DNA of 64,000 nt from an uncultured Dehalococcoidia bacterium. GTDB lineage: Bacteria; Chloroflexota; Dehalococcoidia; Lucifugimonadales; UBA3495. Position numbers and translations under genes: made by a program. Under the pieces are notes generated by a model that was not told the DNA's origin, ran no database searches, and saw only the letters and a program-made list of their open reading frames with translations. Shown here piece by piece: positions 17,940 to 55,780 of this stretch. The stretch is taken from contig OY282565.1 of NCBI GenBank assembly GCA_958296445.1, positions 1,565,570-1,629,569 of the forward strand, written 5' to 3'. Each line of letters begins with the position of its first letter. The first letter of the stretch is position 1.

Positions 17940-18180
17940 GAAATTCGGCTTTGTCGCTCTGAGCTAAGGGAAGGGTCTCGGCGCCCCAAGGTGGGATTCT
18001 TCGCTTTGCTCAGAATGACAGATAGCTTGCTCAGAATGGCAGGGGATTGCTCAGAATGGCAGGGGATTGCTCAGAATGACAGGGGATTGCTTGGAGTGAC
18101 GGATAGCTTGCTCAGAATGACAGGGCTTTGCTCGGAGTGACGGATAGCTTGCTCAGAATGACGGGGCTTTGAAGGGGCGG
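17940..18180. repeat. Family-1 intergenic repeat block with iterated 'ttgctcagaatgacag' sub-repeats
   Basis: The core 'ggtgggattcttcgctttgctcagaatgacag' is followed by about 9 degenerate 20-25 nt iterations. Confidence 0.85.
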
Positions 18181-21467: not shown

Positions 21468-21668
21468 GAAAATTGCGAAATCCCCCTTTGGCACCCTGAG
21501 CGTAAGGGAAGGGTCTCACCGCCCAAGGCGAGATTCTTCGCTTTGCTCAGAATGACAGAGCTTTGCTCAGAATGACAGAGCTTTGCTGAGAGTGGCAGAT
21601 AGATTTGCTCAGGATGGCGGATAGCTTGGTCATAATGACGGATATCGGAAGTAATTTCGCAATTTTCT
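21468..21668. mobile_element. MITE-like family-1 repeat element with terminal inverted repeats GAAAATTGCGAAAT
   Basis: 'gaaaattgcgaaatc' at 21468 pairs with 'atttcgcaattttc' ending at 21668. The interior holds the hairpin core 'ctgagcgtaagggaagggtctc...gagattcttcgctttgctcag' plus iterated tails. Confidence 0.7.
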
Positions 21669-27723: not shown

Positions 27724-28977
27724 TTACTGCCAGCCGTTGGCGTATTCCCCGGTCATCAGCAGGGGGCCGTCGAGGTTGACGAGCTGGTTTTCGATTTCGC
27801 GGAGCAGGCCGTCGAGGTTCCAGCCTTTTTGCGCCGAGACCAGGACGCCGGGCGCCGCGTCTTGGTTCCAAGGGGCGGCGATGCCGGACGGGGACGGGGG
27901 CGGGGCGGCCTGGGTGTTGCCGGGGGTTGCGGCCGGGTTGTCGGCGGGGGGCAGCAAGTCCATTTTATTTATGACAAGCAGGCGGGGGCGGCGGCCTAGG
28001 CCCAGCTCGTCTAGGGTTTGCTCGACTACTTCGGTCTGCTCCGGGGCTTTGGGGTGGGAGACGTCAATGACGTGGAGGAGGACGTCGGCGCGGTCGAGTT
28101 CGTCGAGGGTGGCGCGGAAGGCGGCGATGACGTTGGGGGAGAGCTTTTGGATGAAGCCGACGGTGTCGCTGAGGAGGAGGGGGGCGCCGGAGGGCAGCCG
28201 GACGCGGCGGGTGACGGGGTCGAGGGTGGAAAAGAGCTGGTCGGCGGCTAGGGAGGGGGCGCCATTGGCGGCGGCGGAGCCGGGGGGAATCAAAGCGTTG
28301 AACAGGGTGCTTTTGCCGGCGTTGGTGTAGCCGACTAGGGTGGCCATGGGGATGGCCGATTTCCGGCGGCGGTCCATATGCAGGGTGCGGCGGCGGCGCA
28401 CGCCGTCCAGTTCGGAGCGTATTTTCTGGATGCGGCGGCGAACTAGGCGGCGGTCGGTTTCGATCTGGGTTTCGCCGGGGCCGCGGGTGCCGATGCCGCC
28501 GCCCAAGCGTTCTAGGTGGGACCACTGGCCGGCGAGCCGGGGGAGCAGGTATTCGTGCTGGGCCAGCTCCACTTGGAGCTTGCCTTCGTAACTGGAGGCG
28601 TGGCGTCCGAATACGTCAAGAATCAGGGCGGTGCGGTCTATGACTTTTACGCCCTTTTGCTCGCCCGGCCTAGGGGAAAGGGTTGAGGCTAGGGCGGCTT
28701 CTAGGTTCCGTTGCTGGGTGGGGGTTAGTTCGTCGTCAAAGATTACGACGCCGGCGGATTCTTGTCTTATTATGTCGCGCAGTTCGTCGAGCTTGCCTTT
28801 GCCGACGTAGGTGGGGGTGAGGCGGTCGGTCCGCTGGCTGATGACGCCGGCCACCTCGGCCCCGGCCGACTCGGTGAGGTGGCGCAGTTCGCCTAGGGTG
28901 TCGTCCAGGGTCCAAAGCTGGTCGCGGCCCTTTAATTCGACGGCTACTAGGATGGCGCGTTCCCGCTCGGGGGACAC
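27724..28977 (-). CDS. hflX: GTPase HflX
   Basis: HflX N-terminal domain 'RAILVAV...EELRHL', a '[19 protein letters not shown]' segment, G1 '[16 protein letters not shown]' and G4 'NKMD'. Confidence 0.85.
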
Positions 28978-29070
28978 GTCAACAAGCCGCGCGGCCTTGG
29001 CCGCCCGTTTGGGGGTCTCCGGGTTATGTATGGTAGCCGGGGCTTGGCGCGGTTTGGACTTGGCGATGGG

Positions 29071-30249
29071 CTAACCTCCTTGGGGGGCGGGAATCGTCCA
29101 CGCTTCGATGCGCTGGCAGCCCTTTTCCACTTGTTCGTCGGGGGTGGTCAGGGACAAACGGATGTAGCCCTCTCCGTAGCGGCCATAGCTGGAGCCGGGG
29201 GTGACTACTACGTCTAGGTCTTCGAGCAGGCGTTGGGCGAACTCGGCGGAGGTGAAACCGGGGGGGACTTTGGCCCAGATATACAGGCTGGCCCGGGGGA
29301 CGTCAACTTCCATTCCGGCGTTGCGGACGGCCTGCACTACTCGGTCGCGGCGGCGCTGGTAGATTTCCACGTTGTCGGTGACGCAGTCTTGGGGGCCGGT
29401 CAAGGCTTCGATCGCCATTTCCTGGACTGCCTGGGGGACGCCGGAGTCTAGGTTGGCTTTGATTTGGAACAGGGCGCGAATCATATCGGCGTTGCCGACG
29501 GCCATGCCGATGCGCCAGCCGGTCATATTGTAGGTTTTGGACAGGGAATGGAACTCGATGCCGATGTCTCTGGCGCCGTCCACTTGCAGGTAGCTGGCGG
29601 CCTGATAGCCGTGGTAGCCGACTTCGCTGTAGGCGGCGTCGTGGAGCAGGGCGATGTCGTTTTCGCGGCAGAAGGCGGCGGCGGCGGCGAGGTCTTCGGC
29701 GCTGGCGACGGCGCTGGTGGGGTTGTTGGGGTAGTTGAGCCACATCACTTTGGCGGCGCGGGCGATGTCGGTGGGGATGGCGTCCAGCTCGGGCAGCCAT
29801 CCGTTGCTTTCGTAGAGGGGCATTATGTAACTTTCGGCTCCGGCGAACATCGTGCCGACGCCGTAGACGGGATAGGCCGGGTCGGGAACTAGGGCGATGT
29901 CGCCGGGGTCGAGGAAGCAGAAGGCGGCGTGGCCGATGCCTTCCTTGGCGCCAATCAGGGGGAGAACTTCGGTGTCCGGGTCGAGCTTTACGCCGAAGCG
30001 GATGTCGTACCAGTGGGCGATGGCGCGGCGCATTTCGGGCAGGCCGTCGGTTTCGGGGTAGCGGTGGTTGGGGGGATGCTGGGAGGCGGTCAACAGCCGG
30101 TCTATGATGGGCTGCGGCGTGGGGATGTCGGGGTCGCCGATGCCGAAGGTGACGACGTCGGCGCCGGCGGCCCGCTTGGCCGCGATGATGCGGGAGATTT
30201 CGACGAAGGGATAGGGTGCCAGTTTGCCCAAGCGGTCGGAGAATTTCAT
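29071..30249 (-). CDS. dapL: LL-diaminopimelate aminotransferase (DapL-type class I aminotransferase)
   Basis: 'MKFSDRLGKLAPYPFVEISRIIAAKRAAGADVVTFGIGDPDIPTP' and 'SLSKTYNMTGWRIG' (PLP lysine). Confidence 0.75.
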   Translation of the reverse strand: MKFSDRLGKLAPYPFVEISRIIAAKRAAGADVVTFGIGDPDIPTPQPIIDRLLTASQHPPNHRYPETDGLPEMRRAIAHWYDIRFGVKLDPDTEVLPLIGAKEGIGHAAFCFLDPGDIALVPDPAYPVYGVGTMFAGAESYIMPLYESNGWLPELDAIPTDIARAAKVMWLNYPNNPTSAVASAEDLAAAAAFCRENDIALLHDAAYSEVGYHGYQAASYLQVDGARDIGIEFHSLSKTYNMTGWRIGMAVGNADMIRALFQIKANLDSGVPQAVQEMAIEALTGPQDCVTDNVEIYQRRRDRVVQAVRNAGMEVDVPRASLYIWAKVPPGFTSAEFAQRLLEDLDVVVTPGSSYGRYGEGYIRLSLTTPDEQVEKGCQRIEAWTIPAPQGG

Positions 30250-30337
30250 CTTGGCGGCCTCTGTTGCTTAATTATTGTGGGATTGCGGGGTTTGGATTAA
30301 ACCGGCGATGGGTTGGATGACACGGTTGGCGCTTTCG

Positions 30338-30925
30338 CTAGGCCAGTAGCGGGCCGAAAATGTTGGCTATGGATAGGGCGAAGCCGGGGAGGATTTGGGA
30401 TTGGAGGGTTTGGCCCATTGTGTAGGTGGCTATGGTGGTTGCGGATTGGGGGGTTAGGCGCAGGACTTCGATTGTGCGGGCGGGGAAGTTTACCAGCCAG
30501 CATTCCGGGACGCCTATGCTGCGGTAGTCGGATAGCCGTTGCGTTATGTCGCGGCGGGTGTTGCTGGGGGAAAGAACCTCGACTACTAGCAGCGGGGGGC
30601 GTTCTAGGAAGGGGCGGCCTACTAGGTCGGACGGGCGGGTTATGCCGGTCAATTCGGCGTTCACTACCAGAATATCCGGCTGGCGGACTCGTAAGGGTTC
30701 CCGTTGAATTAGCACGTCGCACGGGGCCGTTAGCACTATGCCGAGATTCCTTTCCCGCACAAATGGCGAGAGCTGCGTCGCAATCTCAAATTCAAGCCAG
30801 GGGTGTTCACCCATTGGGCCGGGGGGCATTAGCAGGACTCCGTCCACAACCTCGCAGCGTTGTTTGGTTTCGGGTAGGGCTTGCCATTGGTCGAAGGTTA
30901 ATTTTTTGGTGCTTGTGGTGGTCAT
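30338..30925 (-). CDS. Uma2-family (DUF820) putative endonuclease, array copy 1 (most downstream in transcription)
   Basis: 588 nt. Starts MTTTSTKKLTFDQWQALPETKQRCEVVDG. Core 'RQPDILVV...LLVVEVLSPSNTRRDITQRLSDYRSIGVPECWLV'. ATG at 30925. Confidence 0.8.
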   Translation of the reverse strand: MTTTSTKKLTFDQWQALPETKQRCEVVDGVLLMPPGPMGEHPWLEFEIATQLSPFVRERNLGIVLTAPCDVLIQREPLRVRQPDILVVNAELTGITRPSDLVGRPFLERPPLLVVEVLSPSNTRRDITQRLSDYRSIGVPECWLVNFPARTIEVLRLTPQSATTIATYTMGQTLQSQILPGFALSIANIFGPLLA

Positions 30926-30942
30926 TGGGTTGTTTCCTGCTG

Positions 30943-31530
30943 CTATTTTAGGAGTGGGCCGAAAATGTTGGCTATGGGTAGGGCGAAGCCGGGCAGGATT
31001 TGGGATTGGAGGGTGTCGGCTATGCCGTAGGTGGCGATGGTGGTTGCGGTGTCGGGGGTTAGGCGCAGGACTTCGATTGTTCGGGCGGGGAAATCGGCCA
31101 GCCAGCACTCGGGGACGCCTATGCTGCGGTAGTCGGCCAGGCGTTGCGTTATGTCGCGGCGGGTGTTGCTGGGGGACAGGACTTCTACCACCAGCAGCGG
31201 GGGGCGTTCTAGGAAGGGGCGGCCTACTAGGTCGGACGGGCGGGTTATGCCGGTTAATTCGGCGTTCACTACCAGAATATCGGGTTGGCGGACTCGTAAG
31301 GGTTCCCGTTGAATCAGGACGTCGTAGGGGGCCGTTAGCACTATGCCGAGATCCCTTTCCCTCACAAATGGCGAGAGATGCCTCACGATTTCTAGGCCAA
31401 GCCATTGGTGTTCACCCATTGGGCTGGGGGGCATTAGCAGGACTCCGTCCACAACCTCGCAGCGTTGGTTGGTTTCGGGTAGGGCTTGCCATTGGTCGAA
31501 GGTTAATTTTTTGGTGCTGATGGTGGTCAT
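30943..31530 (-). CDS. Uma2-family putative endonuclease, array copy 2
   Basis: 588 nt, same frame architecture. ATG at 31530. A 17-nt spacer with AGGAAA lies upstream. Confidence 0.8.
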   Translation of the reverse strand: MTTISTKKLTFDQWQALPETNQRCEVVDGVLLMPPSPMGEHQWLGLEIVRHLSPFVRERDLGIVLTAPYDVLIQREPLRVRQPDILVVNAELTGITRPSDLVGRPFLERPPLLVVEVLSPSNTRRDITQRLADYRSIGVPECWLADFPARTIEVLRLTPDTATTIATYGIADTLQSQILPGFALPIANIFGPLLK

Positions 31531-31547
31531 TGGGTTGTTTCCTGCGG

Positions 31548-32135
31548 CTATTTTAGGAGTGGGCCGAAAATGTTGGCGATGGGTAGGGCGAAGCCGGGGA
31601 GGATTTGGGATTGGAGGGTGTCGGCTATGCCGTAGGTGGCGATGGTGGTTGCGGATTGGGGGGTTAGGCGCAGGACTTCGATTGTGCGGGCGGGGAAGTT
31701 TACTAGCCAGCACTCGGGGACGCCTATGCTGCGGTAGTCGGCCAGCTTTTCCTGAATCTGGCGGCGGGTGTTGCTGGGGGACAGTATTTCCACTACCAGG
31801 TCGGGGGGCGATTCGATGCGCTGTATGTCGGCTAGGTCGGATTCACGCCTGACGCCAGCGCGGGCGGCGCTTAGGTAGAAAATGTCCGGTTGCCTCACCC
31901 GCAGGGGTTCTTTGCTAATCAGCACATCGCACGGGGCCATTATCGCTAGGCCCAAGCCATTTTCTTCTACGAAAAGCGATACGGGCCTGATTATCCGAAG
32001 TCCAAGTATCTGGTGTTCGGGTGTTGGGCTGGGGGGCATTAGCAGGACTCCGTCCACAACCTCGCAGCGTTGCTTGGTTTCGGGTAGGGCTTGCCATTGG
32101 TCGAAGGTTAATTTTTTGGTGCTGATGGTGGTCAT
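31548..32135 (-). CDS. Uma2-family putative endonuclease, array copy 3
   Basis: 588 nt. Carries the central variant 'FYLSAARAGVRRESDLADIQRIESPPDLVVEILSPSN'. Confidence 0.8.
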   Translation of the reverse strand: MTTISTKKLTFDQWQALPETKQRCEVVDGVLLMPPSPTPEHQILGLRIIRPVSLFVEENGLGLAIMAPCDVLISKEPLRVRQPDIFYLSAARAGVRRESDLADIQRIESPPDLVVEILSPSNTRRQIQEKLADYRSIGVPECWLVNFPARTIEVLRLTPQSATTIATYGIADTLQSQILPGFALPIANIFGPLLK

Positions 32136-32152
32136 TGGGTTGTTTCCTGCGG

Positions 32153-32740
32153 CTATTTTAGGAGCGGGCCGAAAATGTTGGCTATGGGTAGGGCGAAGCC
32201 GGGGAGGATTTGGGATTGGAGGGTTTGGCCCATTGTGTAGGTGGCGATGGTGGTTGCGGCTTCGGGGGTTAGGCGCAGGACTTCGATTGTTCGGGTGGGG
32301 AAATCGGCCAGCCAGCACTCGGGGACGCCTATGCTGCGGTAGTCGGCTAGGCGTTGCGTTATGTCGCGGCGGGTGTTGCTGGGGGAAAGGACTTCTACCA
32401 CCAGCAGCGGGGGGCGTTCTAGGAAGGGGCGGCCTACTAGGTCGGATGGGCGGGTTATGCCGGTCAATTCGGCGTTCACTACCAAGACATCGGGTTGGCG
32501 GACTCGTAAGGGTTCCCGTTGAATTAGCACGTCGTAGGGCGCGGATAGGGCGATGCCTAGCCCGTTGTCCCTTACGAATGGTCTGAGACTTAGCAGAATT
32601 TCATCGGCTATCCAGGGGTGTTCACCCATTGGGCCGGGGGGCATTAGCAGGACTCCGTCCACAACCTCGCAGCGTTGTTTGGTTTCGGGTAGGGCTTGCC
32701 ATTGGTCGAAGGTTAATTTTTTGGTGCTTGTGGTGGTCAT
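32153..32740 (-). CDS. Uma2-family putative endonuclease, array copy 4
   Basis: 588 nt. Has a unique segment 'GPMGEHPWIADEILLSLRPFVRDNGLGIALSAPY'. Confidence 0.8.
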   Translation of the reverse strand: MTTTSTKKLTFDQWQALPETKQRCEVVDGVLLMPPGPMGEHPWIADEILLSLRPFVRDNGLGIALSAPYDVLIQREPLRVRQPDVLVVNAELTGITRPSDLVGRPFLERPPLLVVEVLSPSNTRRDITQRLADYRSIGVPECWLADFPTRTIEVLRLTPEAATTIATYTMGQTLQSQILPGFALPIANIFGPLLK

Positions 32741-32757
32741 TGGGTTGTTTCCTGCCG

Positions 32758-33345
32758 CTATTTTAGGAGCGGGCCGAAAATGTTGGCTATGGGTAGGGCG
32801 AAACCGGGGAGGATTTGGGATTGGAGGGTGTCGGCTATGCCGTAGGTGGCGATGGTGGTTGCGGCTTCGGGGGTTAGGCGCAGGATTTCGATTGTCCGGG
32901 TGGGGAAGTTTACCAGCCAGCATTCTAATACGCCGATGCTGCGGTAGTCGGCCAGCTTTTCCTGAATTTGGCGGCGGGTGTTGCTGGGGGAAAGTATTTC
33001 CACCACCAAGTCGGGGGGCGATTCGATGCGCTGTATGTCGGCTAGGTCGGATTCACGCCTGACGCCAGCGCGGGCGGCGCTTAGGTAGAAAATATCCGGT
33101 TGCCTTACCCGCAGGGGTTCTTTGCTAATCAGGACATCGCACGGGGCCATTATCGCTAGGCCCAAGCCATTTTCTTCTACGAAAAGCGATACGGGCCTGA
33201 TTATCCGAAGTCCAAGTATCTGGTGTTCGGGTGTTGGGCTGGGGGGCATTAGCAGGACTCCGTCCACAACCTCGCAGCGTTGTTTGGTTTCGGGTAGGGC
33301 TTGCCATTGGTCGAAGGTCAATTTTTTGGTGCTTGTGGTGGTCAT
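32758..33345 (-). CDS. Uma2-family putative endonuclease, array copy 5
   Basis: 588 nt. Its central part is nearly identical to copy 3. Confidence 0.8.
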   Translation of the reverse strand: MTTTSTKKLTFDQWQALPETKQRCEVVDGVLLMPPSPTPEHQILGLRIIRPVSLFVEENGLGLAIMAPCDVLISKEPLRVRQPDIFYLSAARAGVRRESDLADIQRIESPPDLVVEILSPSNTRRQIQEKLADYRSIGVLECWLVNFPTRTIEILRLTPEAATTIATYGIADTLQSQILPGFALPIANIFGPLLK

Positions 33346-33362
33346 TGGGTTGTTTCCTGCGG

Positions 33363-33950
33363 CTATTTTAGGAGCGGGCCGAAAATGTTGGCTATGGGTA
33401 GGGCGAAGCCGGGGAGGATTTGGGAGCTTAGGGTGTCGGCTATGCCGTAGGTGGCGATGGTGGTTGCGGATTCGGGGGTTAGGCGCAGGACTTCGATTGT
33501 CCGGGCGGGGAAGTTTACTAGCCAGCATTCGGGGACGCCGATGCTGCGGTAGTCGGCCAGGCGTTGCGTTATGTCGCGGCGGGTGTTGCTGGGGGAAAGG
33601 ACTTCGACTACTAGCAGCGGGGGGCGTTCTAGGAAGGGGCGGCCTACTAGGTCGGACGGGCGGGTTATGCCGGTCAATTCGGCGTTCACTACTAGGACAT
33701 CCGGTTGGCGAACTCGTAAGGGTTCCCGTTGAATCAGCACGTCGTAGGGGGCCGTTAGCACTATGCCGAGATCCCTTTCCCGCACAAATGGCGAGAGATG
33801 CCTCACGATTTCTAGGCCAAGCCAGGGGTGTTCACCCATTGGGCTGGGGGGCATTAGCAGGACTCCGTCCACAACCTCGCAGCGTTGTTTGGTTTCGGGT
33901 AGGGCTTGCCATTGGTCGAAGGTTAATTTTTTGGTGCTGATGGTAGTCAT
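33363..33950 (-). CDS. Uma2-family putative endonuclease, array copy 6
   Basis: 588 nt. Its central part is close to copy 2. Confidence 0.8.
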   Translation of the reverse strand: MTTISTKKLTFDQWQALPETKQRCEVVDGVLLMPPSPMGEHPWLGLEIVRHLSPFVRERDLGIVLTAPYDVLIQREPLRVRQPDVLVVNAELTGITRPSDLVGRPFLERPPLLVVEVLSPSNTRRDITQRLADYRSIGVPECWLVNFPARTIEVLRLTPESATTIATYGIADTLSSQILPGFALPIANIFGPLLK

Positions 33951-33967
33951 TGGGTTGTTTCCTGCTG

Positions 33968-34555
33968 CTATTTTAGGAGCGGGCCGAAAATGTTGGCGAT
34001 GGGTAGGGCGAAGCCGGGGAGGATTTGGGATTGGAGGGTTTGGCCCATTGTGTAGGTGGCGATGGTGGTTGCGGATTCGGGGGTTAGGTGCAGGACTTCG
34101 ATTGTGCGGGCGGGGAAGTTTACCAGCCAGCATTCTAATACGCCTATGCTGCGGTAGTCGGCTAGTTTTTCCGTTATGTCGCGGCGGGTGTTGCTGGGGG
34201 ACAGTATTTCCACCACTAGGTCGAGGGGCGATTGGATAAGCTGTATGCCAGCTAGGTCGGACTCGCGTCTTACGCCAGCGCGGGCGGCGCTTAGGTAGAA
34301 AATATCCGGTTGCCTTACCCGCAGGGGTTCCTTGCTAATCAGTACATCGCACGGGGCCATTATCGCTACGCCTAGCTCTCTTTCCCGCACAAACGGGGAG
34401 AGCTGCATCGCAATGTCAAGGCGAAGTATCTGATACTCAAGGGTTGGGTTGGGCGGCATTAGCAGGATTCCGTCCACAACCTCGCAGCGCTGCTTGGTTT
34501 CCGGCAACGCTTGCCATTCGTCGAATGTCAGCCTTTTGGCGCTGGCAGGGTTCAT
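33968..34555 (-). CDS. Uma2-family putative endonuclease, array copy 7 (first in transcription; most divergent N-terminus)
   Basis: 588 nt. Starts MNPASAKRLTFDEWQALPETKQRCEVVDGILLMPP. Its ATG (34553-34555) overlaps the dapF stop as TGATG. Confidence 0.8.
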   Translation of the reverse strand: MNPASAKRLTFDEWQALPETKQRCEVVDGILLMPPNPTLEYQILRLDIAMQLSPFVRERELGVAIMAPCDVLISKEPLRVRQPDIFYLSAARAGVRRESDLAGIQLIQSPLDLVVEILSPSNTRRDITEKLADYRSIGVLECWLVNFPARTIEVLHLTPESATTIATYTMGQTLQSQILPGFALPIANIFGPLLK

Positions 34556-35406
34556 CAGACAGGCCAGTCTCCGGTGAATACTTCGGTGGCGGGGCCTTCC
34601 ATTATTACTTCGCCTGCGCCGTCCCAGGTTATGGTTAGGGGGCCGCCGGGTAGGGTTATGTTTACTGTGTCGGGGCAGTGGTTGGATAGGCGGGCGGCTA
34701 CGGCTATGGCGCAGGCGCCGGTGCCGCAGGCTAGGGTTTCGCCGCTGCCGCGTTCCCAGACCCGGGCGGTTAGCTTGCCGGGGGCGTCTAGGTTGACAAT
34801 CTCAAAGTTGACGCGGCGGGGAAAGATGGGGTGATGCTCTACTTTGGGGCCGATGGTGTGCAGGGGGAAGTCGGCTACGGGCTGGCTGATGAAGGTTACG
34901 GCGTGGGGGTTGCCCATCGAAACGAAGCTTAGGGGGAGGTCGTAGCCGTCTATCGTAAAGGGGTGTTCCAGCACCGGGGGCGGGGGTTCGCCGTCTAGGG
35001 CTACCGGAATTTGGGCGGGTTCAAGGATGGGGGCGCCCATTGCCACCCGGGCGCCGGTGATGCGGGAGCCGCCGTTGGCGTAGGTGGGGGTGACGGTGCG
35101 GATGCCGGCCAGGGTTTCGACGGTGAGGCTGCCGCTAGGGGGGGCGGCGATGTCGCGCTCGATGGCGTATTTGGCGAAACAGCGGATGCCGTTGCCGCAC
35201 ATTTCGCCTTGGGAGCCGTCGGCGTTGAACATTATCATCTTTAGGTCGGCTATGCCGGAGTCGGCAATGAGAATCAGGCCGTCGCTGCCGACGCCGAAAT
35301 GCCGGTCGCTCATGCGGCGGGACAGTTCGGGCCAGTTTTGTTCTTGGGAGCGGGCGTCTATATATATGTAGTCGTTGCCCGCGCCTTGCATTTTGGTGAA
35401 TTGCAT
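34555..35406 (-). CDS. dapF: Diaminopimelate epimerase
   Basis: 'MQFTKMQGAGNDYIYID...FGVGSDGLILI...FNADGSQGEMCGNGIRC...ERGSGETLACGTGACA'. Both catalytic Cys contexts are present. Start was moved to ATG 35406. Confidence 0.9.
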   Translation of the reverse strand: MQFTKMQGAGNDYIYIDARSQEQNWPELSRRMSDRHFGVGSDGLILIADSGIADLKMIMFNADGSQGEMCGNGIRCFAKYAIERDIAAPPSGSLTVETLAGIRTVTPTYANGGSRITGARVAMGAPILEPAQIPVALDGEPPPPVLEHPFTIDGYDLPLSFVSMGNPHAVTFISQPVADFPLHTIGPKVEHHPIFPRRVNFEIVNLDAPGKLTARVWERGSGETLACGTGACAIAVAARLSNHCPDTVNITLPGGPLTITWDGAGEVIMEGPATEVFTGDWPV

Positions 35407-35961
35407 TGGGGTGGGCTCCTTTTGTGGCGTTGGCCTTTTTGGCCCCCTGAGCGGAGCGGATGGTCTCACTGCTCAGGGGTGGGATTCTTCGCTTTGCTCA
35501 GAATGACAGGGTTTTGCTCAGTGGCGGGGTTTGCATTTTGGTGAATTGCATTGGGGTGGACTCCTTTTGGGGCGTTGGCCTTTTTGCTGCCCTGTCCCCT
35601 GTGTCGCCCTGAGCGGAGCGGAGGGTCTCACTGGCCAAGGTGAGATTCTTCGCTTTGCTCAGAATGACAGGGTTTGCTCGGTGGCGGGGTTTGCTTGGGA
35701 TGATGGGGTTTGCTCGTTGCCCGCGCCTTGCATTTCAGAATGGCGGGGTTTGCTAGGTGGCGGGGTTTGCTTGGGATGATGGGGTTTGCTCGTTGCCCGC
35801 GCCTTGCATTTCAGAATGGCGGGGTTTGCTCGGTGGCGGGGTTTGCTTGGGATGACGGGGTTTGCTCGTTGCCCGCGCCTTGCATTTTGGTGAATTGCAT
35901 TGGGGTGGGCTCCTTTTGTTGGCCTGTGCGGGTTGGTGGTGGTGGGTTGGGGGTTGTTGGG
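35407..35961. repeat. Composite repeat region made of duplicated dapF 5'-end/leader segments interleaved with family-1 repeat cores
   Basis: 'ttgcattttggtgaattgcattggggtgg(g/a)ctcctttt' occurs at 35384-35425 (genuine), 35531-35575 and 35879-35920. The fragment 'gttgcccgcgccttgcatttcagaatggcgggg' occurs at 35715 and 35795. Confidence 0.85.
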
Positions 35962-36942
35962 TCATTGTATCACAGGGGGTTGGGGGGCTGGCGGTTGGAG
36001 GAATTGGGCGACGGCTTGGGCGGCTTGGTGGGGGAGGGCGGGGTTGGTGGCGCAGAGCCAGTGGATGCGGGGGTCGGTGGGCTTGAACCAGGTGTATTGG
36101 CGGCGGGCTAGGCGGTGGGTTTTTAGCTTGGTTTGCCGTATCGCTTGTTCTAAGGGCAGTGCGGCGGTTAGGTGTTGGCCCAGTTCGCGGTAGCCGGGGC
36201 TGTCTAGGGGGCCTTGGCCGGGGGGGAATCCGGCGGCTAGTAGTTGCTCTACTTCTTGGAGGAATCCGTCTTGCATCATTTGGTCAACGCGCCGGTCTAT
36301 GCGCTGGTAGAGGGCTTCGCGGGGCATCGTTAGCCCTAGGATTAGGGTTTGGGTTGGCGGCGTTGACGGGGTGGGGGGCGGCAGTTGGGAGGGGGGCTGG
36401 CCGGTAGCGTGGTAGATTTCTAGGGCGCGGATGACGCGGCGGACGTTGCGGGGGTCTAGGGCGGCGGCGCGGGTTGGGTCTATGGCGGCCAGTTGGCGGT
36501 GCAGGGCGTCGGGGCCTAGGCGGGTCGCTTCGGCTTCCAGTCGGGCCCGCAGTTCGGGGTTGGGGGGCGCGGGGGGGACGGGCTGGCCGTTGACTAGGCC
36601 CCAGACGTATTGCCCGGTGCCGCCGCAGACGATGGGCAGCTTTCCTCGCTGTCGGATGTTGCGCAGGGATTCGGCGGCGTATATAAGGAATAGGCCCAAG
36701 CCGAAATTGTCGGACGGGTCTAGGATGTCTACTAGGTGATGGGGGGCTTGGCGGCGTTCCGCGCCGGTGGGTTTGGCGGAGCCGATGGTCATGCCGCGGT
36801 AGACTTGGCGGCTGTCGGCGTTGATTATTTCGCCGTCGAACCGGCGGGCTAGGGCGACGGCGAGGGCCGTCTTGCCGACGGCGGTGGGGCCGACGATGCA
36901 GACTAGGGGGCCGGTTTGCGGTGGGGGGTGGTTGTCGGTCAT
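35962..36942 (-). CDS. miaA: tRNA dimethylallyltransferase
   Basis: 'CIVGPTAVGKTALAVALARRFDGEIINADSRQVYRGMTIGSAKP' is the typical MiaA N-terminus. Confidence 0.9.
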   Translation of the reverse strand: MTDNHPPPQTGPLVCIVGPTAVGKTALAVALARRFDGEIINADSRQVYRGMTIGSAKPTGAERRQAPHHLVDILDPSDNFGLGLFLIYAAESLRNIRQRGKLPIVCGGTGQYVWGLVNGQPVPPAPPNPELRARLEAEATRLGPDALHRQLAAIDPTRAAALDPRNVRRVIRALEIYHATGQPPSQLPPPTPSTPPTQTLILGLTMPREALYQRIDRRVDQMMQDGFLQEVEQLLAAGFPPGQGPLDSPGYRELGQHLTAALPLEQAIRQTKLKTHRLARRQYTWFKPTDPRIHWLCATNPALPHQAAQAVAQFLQPPAPQPPVIQ

Positions 36943-37149
36943 AGATGGCCTTTTGTCATTTTGCTCAGAGTGACAAAGGGGGCGCTCAGGGTGACAAAGG
37001 GGTTGCTCAGGGTAGTAAAGGGTTGCTCAGGCACTTTCTGTCATTCTGAGCAAAGAGAAGAATCTTGGCTTGAGCGGTGAGGCCCTTCGCTTTGCTCAGG
37101 GTGACAAAGGGTTGCTTAGGGTGACAAAGGGTTGATTTGGCGGCGGCGG

Positions 37150-38790
37150 CTAGTCGGGTTGGCCGAGTTTTGGTTGGCGGCCTTGGGGGGGGCGGGCGCG
37201 TTGGGCGGGCTGGTAGTCGGCGGGGCGGGGGGGCAGGTCGAAGTTTTGGCCGGACAGCATTTCGCCGATGGTGCGTAGCTGGATTTTGGGGAAATCGCGG
37301 GCCCATAGGTCGGAGTGGTAGAAACCGGCGCCGACGGCTTCTTGGCGCATATCCCGGGTGGGCGGTTCTAGGGATATGAACAGTCCCAGGGCGGCCTGCT
37401 CCCGTTCTACTACGCCTTTGAGGTCGCGGATTTGGGGGGATGATACCCGCCCGCCCTTGACTTGGATGACGGCTTTTTGGGGGGTGCGGCGCGGGCCGTC
37501 TAGGAAGTAGAGCATACCGTCAACGCCGCGGTCGGGGCCGCGCTTTTGTTCGGATTGCGGCTGCGCCTGTAGCAGGGATACGGCCCAGAACTGGAACTGG
37601 TAGGGGTCTTGTTCCCAGAGGGCGCGGGCGCTGCCTTCGTCCTGCGGTTCGCCTACTACGGCGTAATCGCGGCCGGCTTCTAGGGCGAAGGCGGTTTTCA
37701 GGCGGTTTTTCATCAGGGCTACGGCTAGGTGGGTTATGTCTATTCCCAGCCACTGGCGGCCGAGCTTGTGGGCGGCGGCTACCGCCGTGCCGCAGCCGCA
37801 GAACGGGTCAAGCACTACGTCGCCCTCGTTGGACGAGGCGCGGATGATGCGCTCTAGCAGGGCTTCGGGCTTTTGGGTGGGGTAGCCTAGTCGCTCTTTG
37901 GCTTGGGATGCGACTGCCCCTATGTCTGTCCATATATCTTGTAAAGGGATTCCCGGCATTTCGTCAAGGTATCTTTTATATGCCGGGACTGCTCCTGGCC
38001 GCGTCTGAACGATGCGGCCGGCGTCAATCAATTCCTGCATTCTTTCTTTGGAATAGCGCCAATAACGGGTGACTCCCATAACTTCATAGCTGGGGTTTCC
38101 TTTGGCTGCGCCGCCGGGCCCGGTTAGGTTATCCAATCTATAGCGGCGTCCGGTGTCGGGTTCCTCGTAGCGATAAGACTGGTCTACGTACTCTTGGTCG
38201 TATTGAGTATAGGTTGGGTTCCAAGTCCAGTTGGAAGTCTTGGTATAAAACAAAATCGTATCGTGAACCCGCCCGTGCTGCCGCCTGCCCTGCCGGGTGT
38301 CGCTGTGGGCGCTGGTGCGCTTCCAAGTTATATCGGTTCGGAAATTCTGTTGCCCAAACACGGTGTCCATAAGCAGTTTCAGGTAATGGCCGGCGGTGGG
38401 GTCGCAGTGGAGGTAGATGCTGCCGGTGGGTTTGAGGGCGCGGCGCAGTTCGACTAGGCGGGGGGCCATCATTGTGAGGTAGGCCATCATAGCGTTGCGG
38501 CCGATGAACTGGCGGAAGGCGGTAATCATATCCTTGACTGCGGGTGGGACGTTTGGGTTGGCGATTATGTCTTGCTCGAAGGTGTGTTCGGTTTCTTGGG
38601 TCCATTCCCAGGTGTCGGTGAAGGCGCGGATTTGGGCTGGGGAATCCTCGCCGGTTTTTTCGCGGAAGAGGACGTTGTAGGATGCGTTGGAGTTGAAGGG
38701 TGGGTCGAGGTAGACGAGGTCTACGGAGGCGTCGGGGACGCGCTCGCGGAGGACGGGTAGGTTGTCGCCGTAGAAGAGGGCGTTGGGCAT
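37150..38790 (-). CDS. Beta-class N4/N6 DNA methyltransferase fused to a C-terminal Mrr-like (PD-(D/E)xK) restriction-endonuclease domain
   Basis: '[16 protein letters not shown]' and '[26 protein letters not shown]'. C-terminus '[12 protein letters not shown]...[23 protein letters not shown]...GLFISL'. Start was moved to ATG 38790. N-terminal half is paralogous to 11707..13224. Confidence 0.8.
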
Positions 38791-39452
38791 CAGGGGGCCT
38801 CGCGGGCTAGGCGCTCGGCGTCGCGGATGTAGTCGGCGGTGTCGCGGATGTCGTGGATGAGCAGGTTGACCGGCTCGACGTTGCGCTCGACTACGGCGGT
38901 CTGGTAGATGTCGTGGGATATTGTGGCGTAGCGGCCTTTTATGGGCCGCAAGTCTTGGTTTTGCTCCCGGTTCTGCCAGACAAGGCGCGTCAGGCAGTCG
39001 TAAGTCCATTTTTCGTCGTCCGGGGTGGTTTCCACGCCGGTTCGGGCCAATATCAGGGCGTTGGTGGCCTGTAAAGCGGCGGCCCAAGCCTTTTCCGCCG
39101 ACTTGTGCAGGAGTTCGCGGTTCCAGAGTTGGTTGGCCTCATCCAAGTATTGGACGGCCTCGGAGTAGGTGGCGTGGGCCTTGGCAAACAGGTCGGTCAC
39201 TCGCTTGGTTTCCAGCATATTTGCGTTCTCCGGGTTTTGGCTGCCCAGGCTGCGTATTCCGGCTGAAGTTTGCCCGACGGTGGGCATCCGCCCGGTGCGG
39301 GCGAGGATCAGGGCGTCGGTGGCCCGCTTGGTGGCGCCCCAGGCGGCTTCGGCGGCGATGCGGTGCTTGCCGAGCTCCAGGATTTCGATGGCGTCGGCGT
39401 AGAGCGCCCAGGCGTCGGCGAAGATGGCGGCGGCTTGGTCGGGTTCTGGCAC
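38790..39452 (-). CDS. PaREP1/HEPN-like helical protein (one partial plus one full repeat)
   Basis: Two 'AxEAAWGA / [22 protein letters not shown]' signatures. GTG start at 39452, preceded by AGGAGA. An internal ATG at 39218 is an alternative start. The stop overlaps the methyltransferase ATG as TGATG. Confidence 0.5.
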
Positions 39453-39484
39453 GGGGTCTCCTAGGGTTTGGCTGGGACGGCGGT

Positions 39485-39901
39485 TCAGGGGGCCTCGCGG
39501 GCTAGGCGCTCGGCGTCGCGGATGTAGTCGGCGGTGTCGCGGATGTCGTGGATGGTGAAGTCCAGGGGGTCTACGCTGCCGTTGCATAGCACTAGGTCGA
39601 AAAGATAGACGGACAGGTGGGCGTACCTGTCTTTCAGATCCTCGAGCCCCGGAACTTCTTTGGCCAGGCGCGACAGCAAGCCATAGGTATCGGCGTCGCT
39701 GCCGGGTTTGGGTTCGATGCCGGTGCGGGCGAGAATCAGGGCGTTGGTGGCCTGGTTGGCGGCGGCCCACGCTTTTTCCGCTGATCTAAGCAGTTCGCGC
39801 TTGTCCCAATGCTTTGTTGCGTCGTCCAGCCGCGCTAGGGAATCCGCGCTATTGACGCGGGCTTCGTCCAGTAGAGCGACAACCTGTTTGGTTTTTAACA
39901 T
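39485..39901 (-). CDS. PaREP1/HEPN-like helical protein
   Basis: 138 aa. '[22 protein letters not shown]'. The last ~70 nt are identical to the 3' end of 38790..39452. Confidence 0.5.
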   Translation of the reverse strand: MLKTKQVVALLDEARVNSADSLARLDDATKHWDKRELLRSAEKAWAAANQATNALILARTGIEPKPGSDADTYGLLSRLAKEVPGLEDLKDRYAHLSVYLFDLVLCNGSVDPLDFTIHDIRDTADYIRDAERLAREAP

Positions 39902-40010
39902 ACGTTTTCAGCCTCTGCCGCGGCCAATTGCTCCGTGGCGCGGATGTAGTTGGCGGCGGCTTGGTCGGGTTCTGGCACGGGGTCTCCTAGGGTTTGGCTG
40001 GGACGGCGGT

Positions 40011-40337
40011 TCAGGGGGTGCCTTGTTTTTTCATGTGCTTCAGGGACAGCCAGGTTCCAGTATCGAACTCCTGAAGGATGGCGAAATAGTTGGTGGCGTC
40101 CGGGCCTTGGCCCACTTTGCGCTGGTCAACGGCTAGGAGGCCGCCCAAGACTTCAAGCGCCCGGCTCAAATGGGCTGTTATGTTATCCGTTTCGTTATGG
40201 CGCATCAGCTCTTCTTGGATTTCCGCCAGTGAGTAGGCGAAATCCGGCCGCTCGGCGAGAAAGTGGTAGACTAGACGCATTACTTGTTCGCATTCCGCGG
40301 TTATTTCAAGCTCGAATTGGCGTCTGGTAACAGGCAT
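40011..40337 (-). CDS. Hypothetical small protein (possible winged-helix)
   Basis: 108-aa ORF, lower GC, same strand and tightly spaced with its neighbours. I recognise no family. Confidence 0.4.
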   Translation of the reverse strand: MPVTRRQFELEITAECEQVMRLVYHFLAERPDFAYSLAEIQEELMRHNETDNITAHLSRALEVLGGLLAVDQRKVGQGPDATNYFAILQEFDTGTWLSLKHMKKQGTP

Positions 40338-40357
40338 AGGGTCGCCTCCTTGGTAAG

Positions 40358-40612
40358 TTATTGGCCTACGTTTGGTATAGTATACACCCGGATGCCCACC
40401 ATAAATTTCGACTCAATCAGGTTGGCATCAACCAAATCTTCCAGAGTCAACACAACTTCGGCAGGGGTGACTCGACGCTCGTAGACCTCTAGGAGCGCAT
40501 ACAGGATCTCGTCGGCAGTAAAGGCTTCGTCGTTGCGAGCCTTTAGATACTGCAAAATCGGCACCCCGAAGTTGAGGCGCTCATCGTCGTATTCTTGTCG
40601 GCTTATGGGCAT
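40358..40612 (-). CDS. Hypothetical small protein (possible winged-helix)
   Basis: 84-aa ORF, lower GC. Starts 4 nt after the tpiA stop. 'ILQYLKARNDEAFTADEILYAL' resembles a wHTH recognition region. Confidence 0.4.
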   Translation of the reverse strand: MPISRQEYDDERLNFGVPILQYLKARNDEAFTADEILYALLEVYERRVTPAEVVLTLEDLVDANLIESKFMVGIRVYTIPNVGQ

Positions 40613-40616
40613 TGGG

Positions 40617-41390
40617 TTATGCCTTTGGGGTGGCGAAGGCGGCGGCTACTTGTAGGAACTGGTTGGCTTGGAGGCTGGCGCCGCCTACTAGGGCGCCGTG
40701 GATGCCGGGCTGGGCGGCGAAGGCGGCGGCGTTGGCGGGGTTGACGCTGCCTCCGTATAGCAGGGGGACGGCGTCGGCGGCGTCGCCGAAAAGGTCGCGG
40801 AGGGCGTCTAGGATGGCGCCGCCCATAATTTCCCCGGCGATTTCGGGGGTGGCGGCGCGGCCGGCGCCGATGGCCCATACGGGTTCGTAGGCGATTACTA
40901 TGTCGGTTATGTCCGGTACGTCGGCTACTCCGGCCAGCACTTGGCCTTCTACTACGTCGGCGGCTTGGCCCGATTCCCGGTGTTCTAGGGTTTCGCCGAC
41001 GCAGACTATGGGGCGGAGTCCGGCGAGGAGGGCGGCGCGGGTTTTGCGGTTGACCAGTTCGTCGGTTTCGCCGAAAAGCTGGCGGCGCTCGGAGTGGCCG
41101 AGGATGACGTACTGGCACAGGCCGCGCAGCATTTCGGCGGATACCTCGCCAGTGAAGGCCCCGGAAGGCTCGAAGTGCATATTCTGCGCCCCTACTCCGA
41201 CCCGGGTTGCGCCTGCGGATGGGCCGGTTACTGCGTCGCGCACTGCCGCTAGGGAAACGAAGGGCGGGCAGATTACCAGCTCGACGCCGTTGGCGTTGGC
41301 GGCTCCGGCGGCCACATCAGCGGCCAGGGCGGCGGCCTGGGCTAGGGTGGTGTTCATTTTCCAGTTTCCGGCGACGATGGAGCGGGGCAT
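40617..41390 (-). CDS. tpiA: Triosephosphate isomerase
   Basis: 'IVAGNWKMN', 'ILGHSERR' and '[12 protein letters not shown]'. Start was moved to ATG 41390. Confidence 0.9.
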
Positions 41391-41501
41391 AGCGATACCT
41401 CTGGATGTTGGATTGAGCGGAGGGAATAAGGCATTGCGGCGTTGCGCCATTGCGTTTATTCCCGGTTCCTCCGGCTTGGCGTTAGGGGTTTTCCGGCGGG
41501 G

Positions 41502-42707
41502 TTATGGGCCGTACTTCGCCATTTTTCCGGCGTGGGACATTCCGAGGAGCATTACGTTGGTGGCGGGGATGCTGCCGATGGAGCCTTGGCGGCAGGCGCG
41601 TTCATTGAAGGCGGGGATTCCCTCGCCCCGGGTTAGGTGGGAGTGGAGCATAAAAGGCACGGGATGCCAGCTATGCCCGGCGGTGATGGCGGGGGTGGCG
41701 TGGTCGCCTGCGACTATAAATACGTCGGGCTGTAGCTCGCGGATTGCCGGGATTAGGGGGTCGAGCTCTTCCAGGCACCGGACTTTGGCGTTGAAATCGC
41801 CATCCTCTCCGGCGGCGTCGGCCGGTTTGTAGTGGATAAAAAAGAAATCGTGGGCGTCGAAGTTCCGGCGCATTGTTTCCACTTCGTCGGCGAATTGGCG
41901 GCCGGTGGGGATGACTTTCATTCCGGCGACGGTGGCGAGGCCGCGATACATAGGATAGGCGGCGATGGCGGCGGGGTTCATGCGGTAGACTTGGCCCATC
42001 GGGGGCAGGGTGGGCATTTGGGCGAAACCGCGCAGCAGGAGCATATTGGCGCGGTCTTCTTCGGACATCAGATAGGCCGCCTGTTCGACGAATTGATTGA
42101 CTAGGGCCGCGGTGTGTTCCGCGCCGCCGTTTAGGGGGCGCACCGGGAGGGCGGGAACGCCGGTTTGTTGCGGGTCGGTTTCGGTTACGGCTTCGGACAG
42201 CCCCTCGCCGCGCAGCCGCAGCACAAAGCGGTAGTCCTGCACCGGGAACACGTCCACCTGAACGCCGTCCAGTTGGATGCGGTCGAGGCGGTGGCAGATG
42301 GGGGCGCTGAGTTCGGTGGGGATGCGCCCGGCGCGGCGGTCGGTGAGCAGCCCTTGGGAGTCTATGGTGCAGAAGTTGCCGCGGGCGGCTACGTCGCCGG
42401 GCTGGAGCTCGACGTCTATGCCTAGGGCTTCTAGGGCGCCCCGGCCGATGATGTGCTTTAGGGGGTCGTATCCGAACAGGGCCAGGTGTCCGGGGCCGCT
42501 GCCGGGGGCCACGCCGGGAAGCACCGGGGTGGTCAGGCCGCAGGCGCTTTCTTGGGCCATAGCGTCTAGGTTGGGCAGGCGGGCGGTTTCCAGTTCCGAC
42601 AGGCCGGTGTCGGGGTGGGCTAGGCCGCCCAGCCCGTCCACCACCAGCAGCACAATTTTTGACGGCGTGTTGAGGTAGCAGTCGCGCAGTTCTTGGAGGT
42701 CTATCAT
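41502..42707 (-). CDS. apgM: Cofactor-independent phosphoglycerate mutase, archaeal ApgM type
   Basis: 401 aa. '[12 protein letters not shown]...PNLD...[14 protein letters not shown]...AGDHATP' matches the ApgM pattern. Confidence 0.8.
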
Positions 42708-42752
42708 TGCCTTCGGTTCTCCTTATTGAGTGAGGGCGGGTTCCGCGTATTG

Positions 42753-43952
42753 TCAGGATGCGTCGGGGAGGGCGGCGATGGCGGGCAGTTCTAGGCCGCC
42801 CAAAAACTCTAGGGAGGCGCCGCCGCCGGTGGATACGTGGGTCATACCGTCTACCAGTCCTAGGGCTTCGACGGCTTCGGCGGTGGAGCCGCCGCCGACT
42901 ACGCTGGTTATGCCGGGCGCGTTGGCGATTGCCTGGGCCACGGCGCGGGTGCCTTCGCTGAAGCGGGGCATCTCGAACACGCCCATCGGGCCGTTCCATA
43001 TAACGGTGCGGCACTGTTGCAGGCGTTGGGCGAATTGCGCGGCGGCGGAGGGGGCGATGTCCATAATAAAGGCGCCATCCGGCACTTGAGTTGCGGGCGT
43101 GACTCGAACATCGGCGGGTTCGGGGGCGAATTCGCTGGCGACCACTACTTCGGCGGGCAGATGCACCTGGATGTTGCGGCGGGCGGCGGCGTCCAGCATT
43201 TCGCGGGCGAACTCTAGGCGATCTTCCTCGACCGGGGACGCCCCGACGCTGTGGCCTTGGGCCTTTAGGAAAGTTACGCACATTCCGCCGCCGATGAACA
43301 GGTGGTCGAGTTTGTCCAGCATATTTTGCAGCAGGAGGATTTTGTCGCTGACCTTGGCGCCGCCGAGCAGAGCGGCTAGGGGTTTTTCCGGGGCGTCTAG
43401 GGCTCGGCCCATAGAGTTTACTTCCTTTTCGACCAGAAAACCCATAGCCGAGGGCAGGTATCGGGGGACGCCGACGGTGGAGGCGTGGGCGCGGTGGGCC
43501 ACGGCGAAGGCGTCCATTACGAAATAGTCGGCCAAGGCGGCTAGGGATTGGGCAAAGGCGGGGTCGTTGGCTTCCTCGCCGGGGTGGAACCGCAGGTTTT
43601 CCAGCAGGGCGACGTCGCCGGGGGACATTGCGGCGATGGCGGCGTCCACTTCCGGCCCGGTGATTTCCGGCAGGCTTTTGACTGGGTGGCCTAGCAGGTA
43701 GGCTAGGCGGTCGCCTACCGGGGCTAGGCGCAGGGCGTCGTCAACTTTTCCTCGGGGACGCCCCAAGTGGGAGCATAGAATCGTGCGGCAACCTTGGCCG
43801 ATGAGGTGGCGGATGGTGGGCAGGGTGGCGCGGAGGCGCTGGTCGTATCCGGCGATGGCTTCGATTCCCTGCTCGATGGGGATGTTGAAATCCACCCGCA
43901 CCAGCACCCGGCTGTTGGCTGGGTTGAGTTGGGACAGAGTGCGCTTAACCAC
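42753..43952 (-). CDS. pgk: Phosphoglycerate kinase
   Basis: 'VRVDFNIP...SHLGRPRGK...FHPGEE...GGAKVSDKI...WNGPMGVFE...GGGST'. Confidence 0.9.
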   Translation of the reverse strand: MVKRTLSQLNPANSRVLVRVDFNIPIEQGIEAIAGYDQRLRATLPTIRHLIGQGCRTILCSHLGRPRGKVDDALRLAPVGDRLAYLLGHPVKSLPEITGPEVDAAIAAMSPGDVALLENLRFHPGEEANDPAFAQSLAALADYFVMDAFAVAHRAHASTVGVPRYLPSAMGFLVEKEVNSMGRALDAPEKPLAALLGGAKVSDKILLLQNMLDKLDHLFIGGGMCVTFLKAQGHSVGASPVEEDRLEFAREMLDAAARRNIQVHLPAEVVVASEFAPEPADVRVTPATQVPDGAFIMDIAPSAAAQFAQRLQQCRTVIWNGPMGVFEMPRFSEGTRAVAQAIANAPGITSVVGGGSTAEAVEALGLVDGMTHVSTGGGASLEFLGGLELPAIAALPDAS

Positions 43953-55637: not shown

Positions 55638-55656
55638 TGAGTATGTCCCGATTAGG

Positions 55657-55733: not shown

Positions 55734-55780
55734 GGTTGCGGGGCTGTTGGGAGCCGGGGCTGCGGCCCGGGTTCCGGGGA

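Follow-up and report, generated by a model that had tools for sequence, protein, structure and literature searches.

The window analysed here, a 64,000-nt stretch of contig OY282565.1 (assembly GCA_958296445.1, positions 1,565,570–1,629,569) from an uncultured Dehalococcoidia bacterium, carries a tandem array of seven genes of the Uma2 family (COG4636). The seven coding sequences (CDSs) lie on the minus strand at 30338 + 605i (i = 0 to 6), each 588 nt long and running from ATG to TAG over 195 codons with no internal stop. The six 17-nt spacers between them follow the pattern C[A/C/G]GCAGGAAACAACCCA and place an AGGA core 9 nt ahead of each ATG. A first-pass annotation had described seven 588-nt CDSs with 17-nt spacers, a 605-bp period and no premature stop, which is correct to the base; the 20-mer that it quoted for the spacer fits two of the six spacers and differs by one base from the other four. 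Pairwise identity among the copies is 75–96% for DNA and 70–97% for protein. The copies are named T1 to T7 in the order of minus-strand transcription. The units of the array are as follows.

33968–34555, minus strand: Uma2 copy T1, first transcribed; central type B; Tyr at position 41; 1-nt overlap of its ATG with the dapF stop.
33951–33967, minus strand: spacer T1–T2, 17 nt, CAGCAGGAAACAACCCA, with an AGGA Shine-Dalgarno-like core.
33363–33950, minus strand: Uma2 copy T2; central type A with an h3-like helix; closest paralogue T6.
33346–33362, minus strand: spacer T2–T3, 17 nt, CCGCAGGAAACAACCCA.
32758–33345, minus strand: Uma2 copy T3; central type B; DNA identity to T5 95.6%.
32741–32757, minus strand: spacer T3–T4, 17 nt, CGGCAGGAAACAACCCA.
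32153–32740, minus strand: Uma2 copy T4; central type A, helix class h1 (PWIADEIL...); its orthologue is the third copy of locus L001.
32136–32152, minus strand: spacer T4–T5, 17 nt, CCGCAGGAAACAACCCA.
31548–32135, minus strand: Uma2 copy T5; central type B.
31531–31547, minus strand: spacer T5–T6, 17 nt, CCGCAGGAAACAACCCA.
30943–31530, minus strand: Uma2 copy T6; central type A.
30926–30942, minus strand: spacer T6–T7, 17 nt, CAGCAGGAAACAACCCA.
30338–30925, minus strand: Uma2 copy T7, last; central type A; 3′ end unique (..LLA*); its orthologue is the second copy of L001.

The array was missed by Tandem Repeats Finder (TRF) in a scan of the window, since the longest TRF period is 500. The 256–355-aa open reading frames (ORFs) of the mechanical ORF list run upstream, out of frame, into the copy before them, and the long ORFs in other frames or on the opposite strand across the array are regarded as GC-rich artefacts (the sequence is 61% GC). 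Downstream of T7 no relic of a further Uma2 copy is supported, the alignment score being equal to that of shuffles. Exact database look-ups of the window's own proteins found no records, a cluster look-up gave neither names nor accessions, no NCBIfam model matched the Uma2 copies, and an Rfam scan of the window gave nothing in or near the array, its only matches being tRNAs at about 55 kb, where four tRNA genes are clustered at 55196–55962.

All seven proteins match the Pfam Uma2 profile (PF05685) over its positions 2–171 of 172, with E values of 2e-27 to 8e-33 and 96–114 bits against a cut-off of 27. The hidden Markov model (HMM) search thus confirms from end to end the family assignment of the first-pass annotation, and the motifs that it listed (RQPD, VVE[VI]LSPSNTRR and Y..IGV.ECW) are found in all seven copies around an internal region that is strongly divergent, as it had stated. 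An AlphaFold2 (AF2) model of a copy has a mean predicted local distance difference test score (pLDDT) of 79 and a predicted template-modelling score (pTM) of 0.75. It consists of a helix at residues 40–58, core strands at 62–66, 71–74, 79–81, 85–89 and 113–118, and a helix at 124–136, and has the restriction-endonuclease-like fold. In a Foldseek search it retrieves 9Y1L, 6OKH, 3OT2 and 1WDJ at E values of 4e-17 to about 1.5e-10 with probability 1.00; the four are matched at the sequence level too, and the only other significant neighbour in the PDB is 3IJM, a restriction-endonuclease-like protein of unknown function.

The active site of the family was assigned to the PD-EXX-K variant by Feder & Bujnicki 2005 (PMC551604), with H43, D83, E111 and K127 in all3650 and K130 in TT1808. 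The equivalent residues in the Uma2 copies are H41, D84, E116 and position 130, with E40 ahead of H41. Among 45 surveyed copies D84, E116 and S119 are invariant, and H41 is invariant except for a Tyr in T1 and in its L001 orthologue (8791–9378). Position 130 is K or R, with R130 in type A copies. The active-site set is thus present, with Y41 in T1 and R130 in type A as exceptions, and the copies are putative PD-(D/E)xK nucleases of the PD-EXX-K variant. Within helix 40–58, positions 41, 48, 52, 55 and 56 are conserved (low entropy) and the others are hypervariable, as expected of a buried stripe next to an exposed variable face. Types A and B are told apart by a module made up of the strand that follows D84, a pair of short helices and the loop running to the E116 strand. 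The N-terminal 38 residues are very conserved and are of low confidence in the AF2 monomer model.

The array lies within a row of minus-strand genes, and all genes from pgk (about 43.9 kb) through hflX share this orientation. The nearest features are these.

35962–36942, minus strand: miaA, a conserved upstream neighbour.
35407–35961, minus strand: miaA–dapF intergenic region, with extra copies of the dapF ribosome-binding site (RBS), repetitive extragenic palindromic (REP)-like units and a 76-nt tandem repeat in three copies.
34555–35406, minus strand: dapF, diaminopimelate epimerase (TIGR00652, 265 bits); the likely start is the ATG at 35406.
29071–30249, minus strand: dapL-type LL-diaminopimelate aminotransferase (NF006756, 576 bits), 88 nt downstream of T7.
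27724–28977, minus strand: hflX, a conserved downstream neighbour.

A protein search returned hundreds of 195-aa homologues at 70–77% identity, and another 23 independent loci came from context look-ups and from scanning species-representative genomes, making 24 with the window. The block miaA–dapF–Uma2(n)–dapL–hflX is kept in 22 of the 23; these 22 comprise 18 metagenome-assembled genomes (MAGs) labelled "Dehalococcoidia bacterium", many of them complete long-read chromosomes, and metagenome contigs. The outlier, L023 from Latescibacterota at 48% identity, is without this context. Among the 24 loci a single Uma2 gene is found in 11, two in four, three in four, four in three and five in one, and seven in the window only. 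In almost all loci the dapF stop adjoins or overlaps the start of the first Uma2 gene, L001 being the exception. Most arrays have spacers of 15–17 nt; in L002 the spacer is 1 nt and the proteins have 200 aa, because a stop codon was lost. A further scan of metagenomes yielded five short contigs and no usable array, and a tblastn search against plasmids gave five single Uma2 matches at 29–35% identity and no array.

The conserved block and the range of one to seven copies identify this as an old Uma2 gene that unequal recombination has repeatedly amplified and trimmed. In L010 (8600–8920) and L017 (8589–8651) the repeated unit carries a piece of the dapF 3′ end, and these duplications are therefore independent events with other breakpoints. 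The nearest relative, L001, has flanking proteins 96–98% identical to those of the window and three Uma2 copies. Between its dapF and its first full copy (8717–8790) lies a 42-nt remnant consisting of a Uma2 3′ end and spacer, with an alignment score of 39 against 16.9 ± 2.3 for shuffles, which marks a deleted array copy. A tree built from the four flanking proteins joins the window with L001, L003 and L008 (seven, three, four and five copies, respectively) in one subclade, and the rest of it is dominated by single-copy genomes. As read from these loci, unequal homologous recombination between the ~605-bp units changes the copy number, from one to seven among relatives. On the same comparison the array is a copy-number-variable form of an old, vertically inherited gene, without recent insertion. 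The first-pass annotation had looked to copy number and order in related genomes as a check on the array; the comparison shows conserved synteny, a copy number that ranges from one to seven and individual copies retained in L001.

The seven copies are mosaics. Codons 38–130 separate T2, T4, T6 and T7 (type A) from T1, T3 and T5 (type B), codons 169–172 separate T1, T4 and T7 from T2, T3, T5 and T6, and codons 145–146 set T4 and T6 apart. The four-gamete test gives 2335 failing pairs among 119 informative sites, the minimum number of recombination events (Rm) is 24, and a permutation test of the pairwise homoplasy index (PHI) type gives p < 0.0005. In region-wise trees the C-terminal third clusters by genome and residues 84–132 cluster by type across species. 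The same partition is seen in the identities.

Residues 1–35: different types in the same genome 90%, same type in different genomes 78%.
Residues 36–66: different types in the same genome 42%, same type in different genomes 54%.
Residues 85–132: different types in the same genome 56%, same type in different genomes 74%.
Residues 133–194: different types in the same genome 89%, same type in different genomes 69%.

These identities indicate that the ends evolve in concert by gene conversion and that two internal modules keep old classes. Gene conversion, by this comparison, keeps the N- and C-terminal thirds of one genome's copies nearly identical, and the two modules that escape homogenisation are the exposed face of helix 42–60 and residues 85–132. 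Type B is probably ancestral and type A a clade-specific derivative, since the outgroup L023 and a basal L022 copy have a B-like middle. In helix 42–60 at least three classes recur, h1 (W[IV][AS]DEIL), h2 (WAIRV[IF]) and h3 (WLG[FL]EI), and these pair with A and B in different combinations. Arrays are nearly always mixed, as in L003 (h3B-h1A-h1A-h3B), L008 (h2A-h3B-h1A-h1A-h3B), L029 (h2A-h3A-h1A-h3B) and L010 (h1A and h2A). The window array reads B A B A B A A and carries five different helix sequences. A mechanism like that of diversity-generating retroelements (DGRs), or one drawing on silent cassettes, was rejected as the source of this variation because all bases are affected by the differences and each copy forms a complete gene.

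The ratio of nonsynonymous to synonymous substitution rates (dN/dS, omega), calculated by Nei-Gojobori over the whole gene unless stated, is 0.11–0.43 across all paralogue pairs. The youngest pairs are T3/T5 (omega 0.11, dS 0.14) and T2/T6 (omega 0.15, dS 0.16), with 7 and 10 nonsynonymous differences, respectively, among some 435 nonsynonymous sites. Between the window and L001 the orthologous pairs T1/L001_1, T7/L001_2 and T4/L001_3 have omega of 0.17–0.26 and nearly identical helices. All 45 surveyed copies are intact. Because dN/dS is low and the catalytic residues are conserved, the copies are judged functional and under purifying selection. The claim that these are maintained genes therefore stands, with the values for young pairs, the catalytic residues and the L001 orthologues behind it, and the idea of decaying duplicates is rejected on dN/dS, intact copies and kept catalytic residues. 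Rapid diversifying selection was considered and dropped in favour of old alleles and gene conversion, because no region or pair lies clearly above omega 1; one C-terminal comparison, based on about 12 differences, reached 1.18.

The A of the T1 ATG is shared with the dapF stop TGA (TGATG at 34555). Inside the array no terminator-like site or hairpin was found on the minus strand, and there is no usable gap either. Co-transcription, which the first-pass annotation had assumed, is plausible on this ground and is upheld to that degree: the array may be co-transcribed with dapF and dapL and translationally coupled. A promoter scan of the array gave six weak identical matches, one sequence recurring with the unit, and these were not accepted as internal promoters as they merely repeat with it. 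The operon promoter probably lies in the miaA–dapF intergenic region (35407–35961). There the dapF RBS and first seven codons occur three times (35386–35406, 35531–35551 and 35880–35900), and the 76-nt threefold tandem repeat at 35659–35887 is interleaved with REP-like units and dapF-start copies. With these repeats, the stretch immediately ahead of the Uma2 operon is itself prone to duplication.

The REP-like intergenic element has the core GTCATTCTGAGCAAAGC and occurs 16 times in the window against about 0 expected (3339, 5962, 8769, 11700, 18003–18141, 21540–21576, 35491, 35652, 37040, 37089, 52019, 55481 and 56075). Its copies are nearly all on the minus strand, often in short tandem runs, and are the 20-nt-period rows of the TRF scan. 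Other tandem repeats lie at 4149–4409 (101 nt, 2.6 copies), 6850–7182 (83 nt, 4 copies) and 47508–47720 (45 nt, 4.7 copies). A singleton eighth and distinct Uma2 paralogue is encoded at 18984–19550 on the minus strand (Pfam E 1.7e-33), between genes for a thiamine pyrophosphate (TPP) enzyme and a short-chain dehydrogenase, overlapping the end of the latter ORF. Housekeeping genes within 27724–43952 have third codon positions strongly C-biased on the coding strand (C3 about 0.6). GC content at third positions (GC3) is 0.66–0.70 in the Uma2 copies, the singleton Uma2 and a methyltransferase (MTase) fusion gene, against 0.75–0.83 in housekeeping genes.

This fusion gene, at 37150–39087 on the minus strand and about 2.6 kb upstream of the array, joins an N6_N4 DNA methylase to an Mrr_cat/NA-iREase1 domain. 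Together with a PaREP1-like ORF (38790–39770, minus strand) it lies just upstream of miaA, and the pair is also found in the relatives L001, L002, L004, L029 and L030. As a restriction-modification partner for the array it is set apart by miaA and dapF and has a nuclease domain of its own. No small antitoxin gene that could be cognate to the copies, as in a type II toxin-antitoxin system, is found within the window array. In L031 a small HicB-like antitoxin ORF with a weak Pfam match (5596–5859) lies between the three-copy Uma2 array and dapL.

There is good support, from the loci and alignments compared, for reading the array as a functional Uma2 paralogue cassette, one that unequal crossing-over and gene conversion have generated and remodelled at a conserved site in the operon. 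Much less support exists for the further proposal that the copies are active nuclease subunits in which the two variable modules set substrate or partner specificity, widening the recognition repertoire in a conflict-type role. In this clade of Dehalococcoidia the Uma2 gene is an ancestral, vertically inherited member of the co-directional miaA–dapF–Uma2–dapL–hflX block, probably coupled to dapF, and in the window it was amplified to seven copies. All seven copies would be translated from the dapF–dapL transcript by coupling and by reinitiation at the 17-nt AGGA spacers, each giving an active metal-dependent nuclease subunit. The array would then be a panel of at least five enzyme variants differing in substrate- or partner-recognition surfaces, namely the helix 42–60 after the catalytic Glu40/His41 and the 85–132 insert between the Asp84 and Glu116 strands. 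Its role would most likely be of the conflict type, either a restriction-like defence or a selfish recombinogenic activity. A by-product, on this reading, would be the strict phase, because indels are not tolerated in the family (195 aa across the clade) and copying of the unit proceeds through homologous exchange. Of the "length-locked" character given to the array earlier, the 195 aa of all copies stand; the same length is found in nearly every homologue of the clade, single-copy ones included. Taken as a whole, the recombining functional cassette in the dapF–dapL operon together with the panel of nuclease variants in a conflict-type role is the reading we lean towards, with moderate confidence.

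Several points weigh against this reading. The copy number, transcription and translation of the array are read from the assembled sequence, and the extra copies are dispensable, 11 of the 24 loci managing with one. The variable helix has saturated dS (0.9–2.2) and omega of 0.16–0.68, without a direct signature of positive selection; such values suggest old alleles under constraint and no detectable burst of it. Divergent middles may persist merely because gene conversion stalls at low homology. The specificity panel and the conflict role are reached by inference, the literature consulted on the family gives no biochemical or genetic function for any Uma2 protein, and a housekeeping operon context with vertical inheritance is atypical of defence islands.

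Alternatively, the array could be an anti-phage or anti-plasmid defence locus of stand-alone restriction-like nucleases whose turnover reflects an arms race. All tested copies match the defence candidate PDC-S03 of PADLOC, COG4636 has been counted among restriction endonucleases in Tn7 cargo, and the copy-number polymorphism, the hypervariable surface positions and the conserved MTase fusion upstream would fit such a role. PDC-S03 is a candidate only, and an experimental paper on it was not found. Moreover, the locus is embedded between dapF and dapL and vertically inherited in at least 22 genomes, its orthologous copies are conserved with omega above 1 absent, and Feder & Bujnicki 2005 (PMC551604) reported COG4636 to be without a link to methyltransferases. 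As a full account, therefore, defence is possible and on balance unlikely.

In a selfish or neutral amplification, a recombinogenic nuclease or repeat slippage would expand the gene, and the extra copies would bring dosage or nothing and be deleted later. Feder & Bujnicki 2005 (PMC551604) proposed exactly this route, a recombinogenic nuclease as the cause of tandem duplication. The varying copy number, the independent breakpoints, the deletion relic, the partial dapF 5′-end duplications just upstream and the single copy in 11 loci all agree with it. It leaves unexplained the strong purifying selection on both members of the young pairs and the intactness of every surveyed copy. Arrays also keep different old classes and not runs of identical copies, and individual variants are kept between the window and L001, so that we find this explanation rather improbable.

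In a combinatorial hetero-oligomer the homogenised ends would form a common dimer interface through which any pair of paralogues could associate, each variable helix and insert would bring its own half-site or partner specificity, and types A and B would mainly form heterodimers. Ten species with an A copy only and one with a B copy only indicate that neither type needs the other, and the three copies of L031 and the two of L010 are all of type A. Most multi-copy arrays nevertheless hold A and B, or A and a third type, and the alternation in the window and the ends about 90% identical across types would suit this arrangement, as would the conserved N-terminal 38 residues, whose low confidence in the monomer is expected if they are ordered by contacts. 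Each solved Uma2 entry has two chains, and chain counts in the PDB do not prove a biological dimer. We give this explanation little credence.

A bolder form of it is a combinatorial nuclease kit, in which conversion keeps the dimerisation scaffold, the N- and C-terminal thirds, shared among all paralogues for free mixing and selection keeps 42–60 and 85–132 different; this is a long shot. If true, n genes would give up to n(n + 1)/2 dimeric enzymes, each with its own half-site specificity, constitutive expression would come from residence in an essential lysine/peptidoglycan operon, and the Uma2 family would have a first mechanistic rationale for cassette formation. That a shorter repeat was expanded or mis-joined by the assembler, tandem repeats being a classic source of copy-number errors, is very unlikely, because the copies differ by 4–25% in DNA with five distinct helix alleles and independent assemblies from other samples hold 604–605-bp arrays of three to five copies, and three of the window copies have near-identical L001 orthologues.

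Uma2/COG4636, a large family without an assigned function, accounts for as much as 2% of the genes of some cyanobacteria and has been described as selfish and as inserted at random. The recombining cassette favoured here displays a different mode, one orthologue long fixed in a housekeeping operon in one to seven copies. Diverse modules amid a homogenised gene pinpoint the parts that probably carry specificity, and the A and B types, the h1–h3 helices and the H41Y copy offer a natural allelic series for biochemistry.

Among known systems the nearest in structure are 9Y1L (Leptospirillum), 6OKH (Leptospira), 3OT2 (Anabaena) and 1WDJ (Thermus TT1808), which share the fold, the highest TM (template-modelling) score on the target being 0.87. 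Their catalytic D/E/K(R) positions correspond to those of the copies, and K130 of TT1808 aligns with position 130. These proteins are only 20–32% identical to the copies and are structural-genomics entries without assigned activity; literature searches found no functional studies on 9Y1L, TT1808 or PDC-S03. The PDC-S03 HMM matches the tested copies over their full length (E 1e-27 to 1e-28), and while defence islands turn over, the window gene is stably settled in its operon. Genes for another putative nuclease, RPN (recombination-promoting nuclease), likewise form multi-copy tandem arrays, for example in Thermosynechococcus TA-1 (11, 3 and 3 copies; PMC9403480). That genome has expanded Uma2 genes as well, but RPN is a different family and the operon context is not shared.

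Orphan immunity-gene arrays and silent antigenic-variation banks resemble the array in their head-to-tail paralogues, whose ends are conserved and whose middle varies, and in frequent gene conversion. Unlike these, the window array has neither a toxin gene nor an expression locus next to it: dapF lies upstream instead, and all copies are complete with ATG, RBS and stop. Unlike silent cassettes, they are also full-length, carry an intact catalytic site and represent old alleles under purifying selection. The immunity-type cassette bank of the first-pass annotation thus fits poorly, and so does a bank of silent cassettes.

The closest counterparts are the Uma2 cassettes of cyanobacteria, Thermus and others. 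In Feder & Bujnicki 2005 (PMC551604) the COG4636 proteins are presented as putative nucleases that proliferate within genomes, and tandem duplications are listed for nine species, with one run of four in Crocosphaera watsonii. Makarova, Wolf & Koonin 2009 (PMC2701414) also reported Uma2 paralogue cassettes, Steczkiewicz et al. 2012 listed the family as a predicted endonuclease, and Uma2 expansions are known in Thermus and Thermosynechococcus. The statements in the first-pass annotation that Uma2 genes are usually scattered singletons and that no system with this layout had been described are therefore not supported. Like those cassettes (PMC551604, PMC2701414), the array belongs to the same family with the same PD-EXX-K variant, consists of adjacent co-oriented genes made by tandem duplication, and has no antitoxin or methylase partner; its seven genes are adjacent and the 17-nt spacers are too short for a partner ORF. 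It differs in its copy number, seven against a maximum of four, and in its host, Dehalococcoidia against Cyanobacteria. Its gene is a clade-wide orthologue fixed between miaA–dapF and dapL–hflX and probably coupled to dapF, neither randomly inserted nor recently mobile, and it has concerted ends with a trans-specific middle; the two papers report no such features for the cyanobacterial cassettes. What is new here is the size of seven, the host lineage, the fixed site in a diaminopimelate (DAP)/lysine operon with probable dapF coupling, the polymorphism from one to seven, and the concerted ends with a trans-specific middle; the array is the largest Uma2 cassette found here and not a new kind of system.

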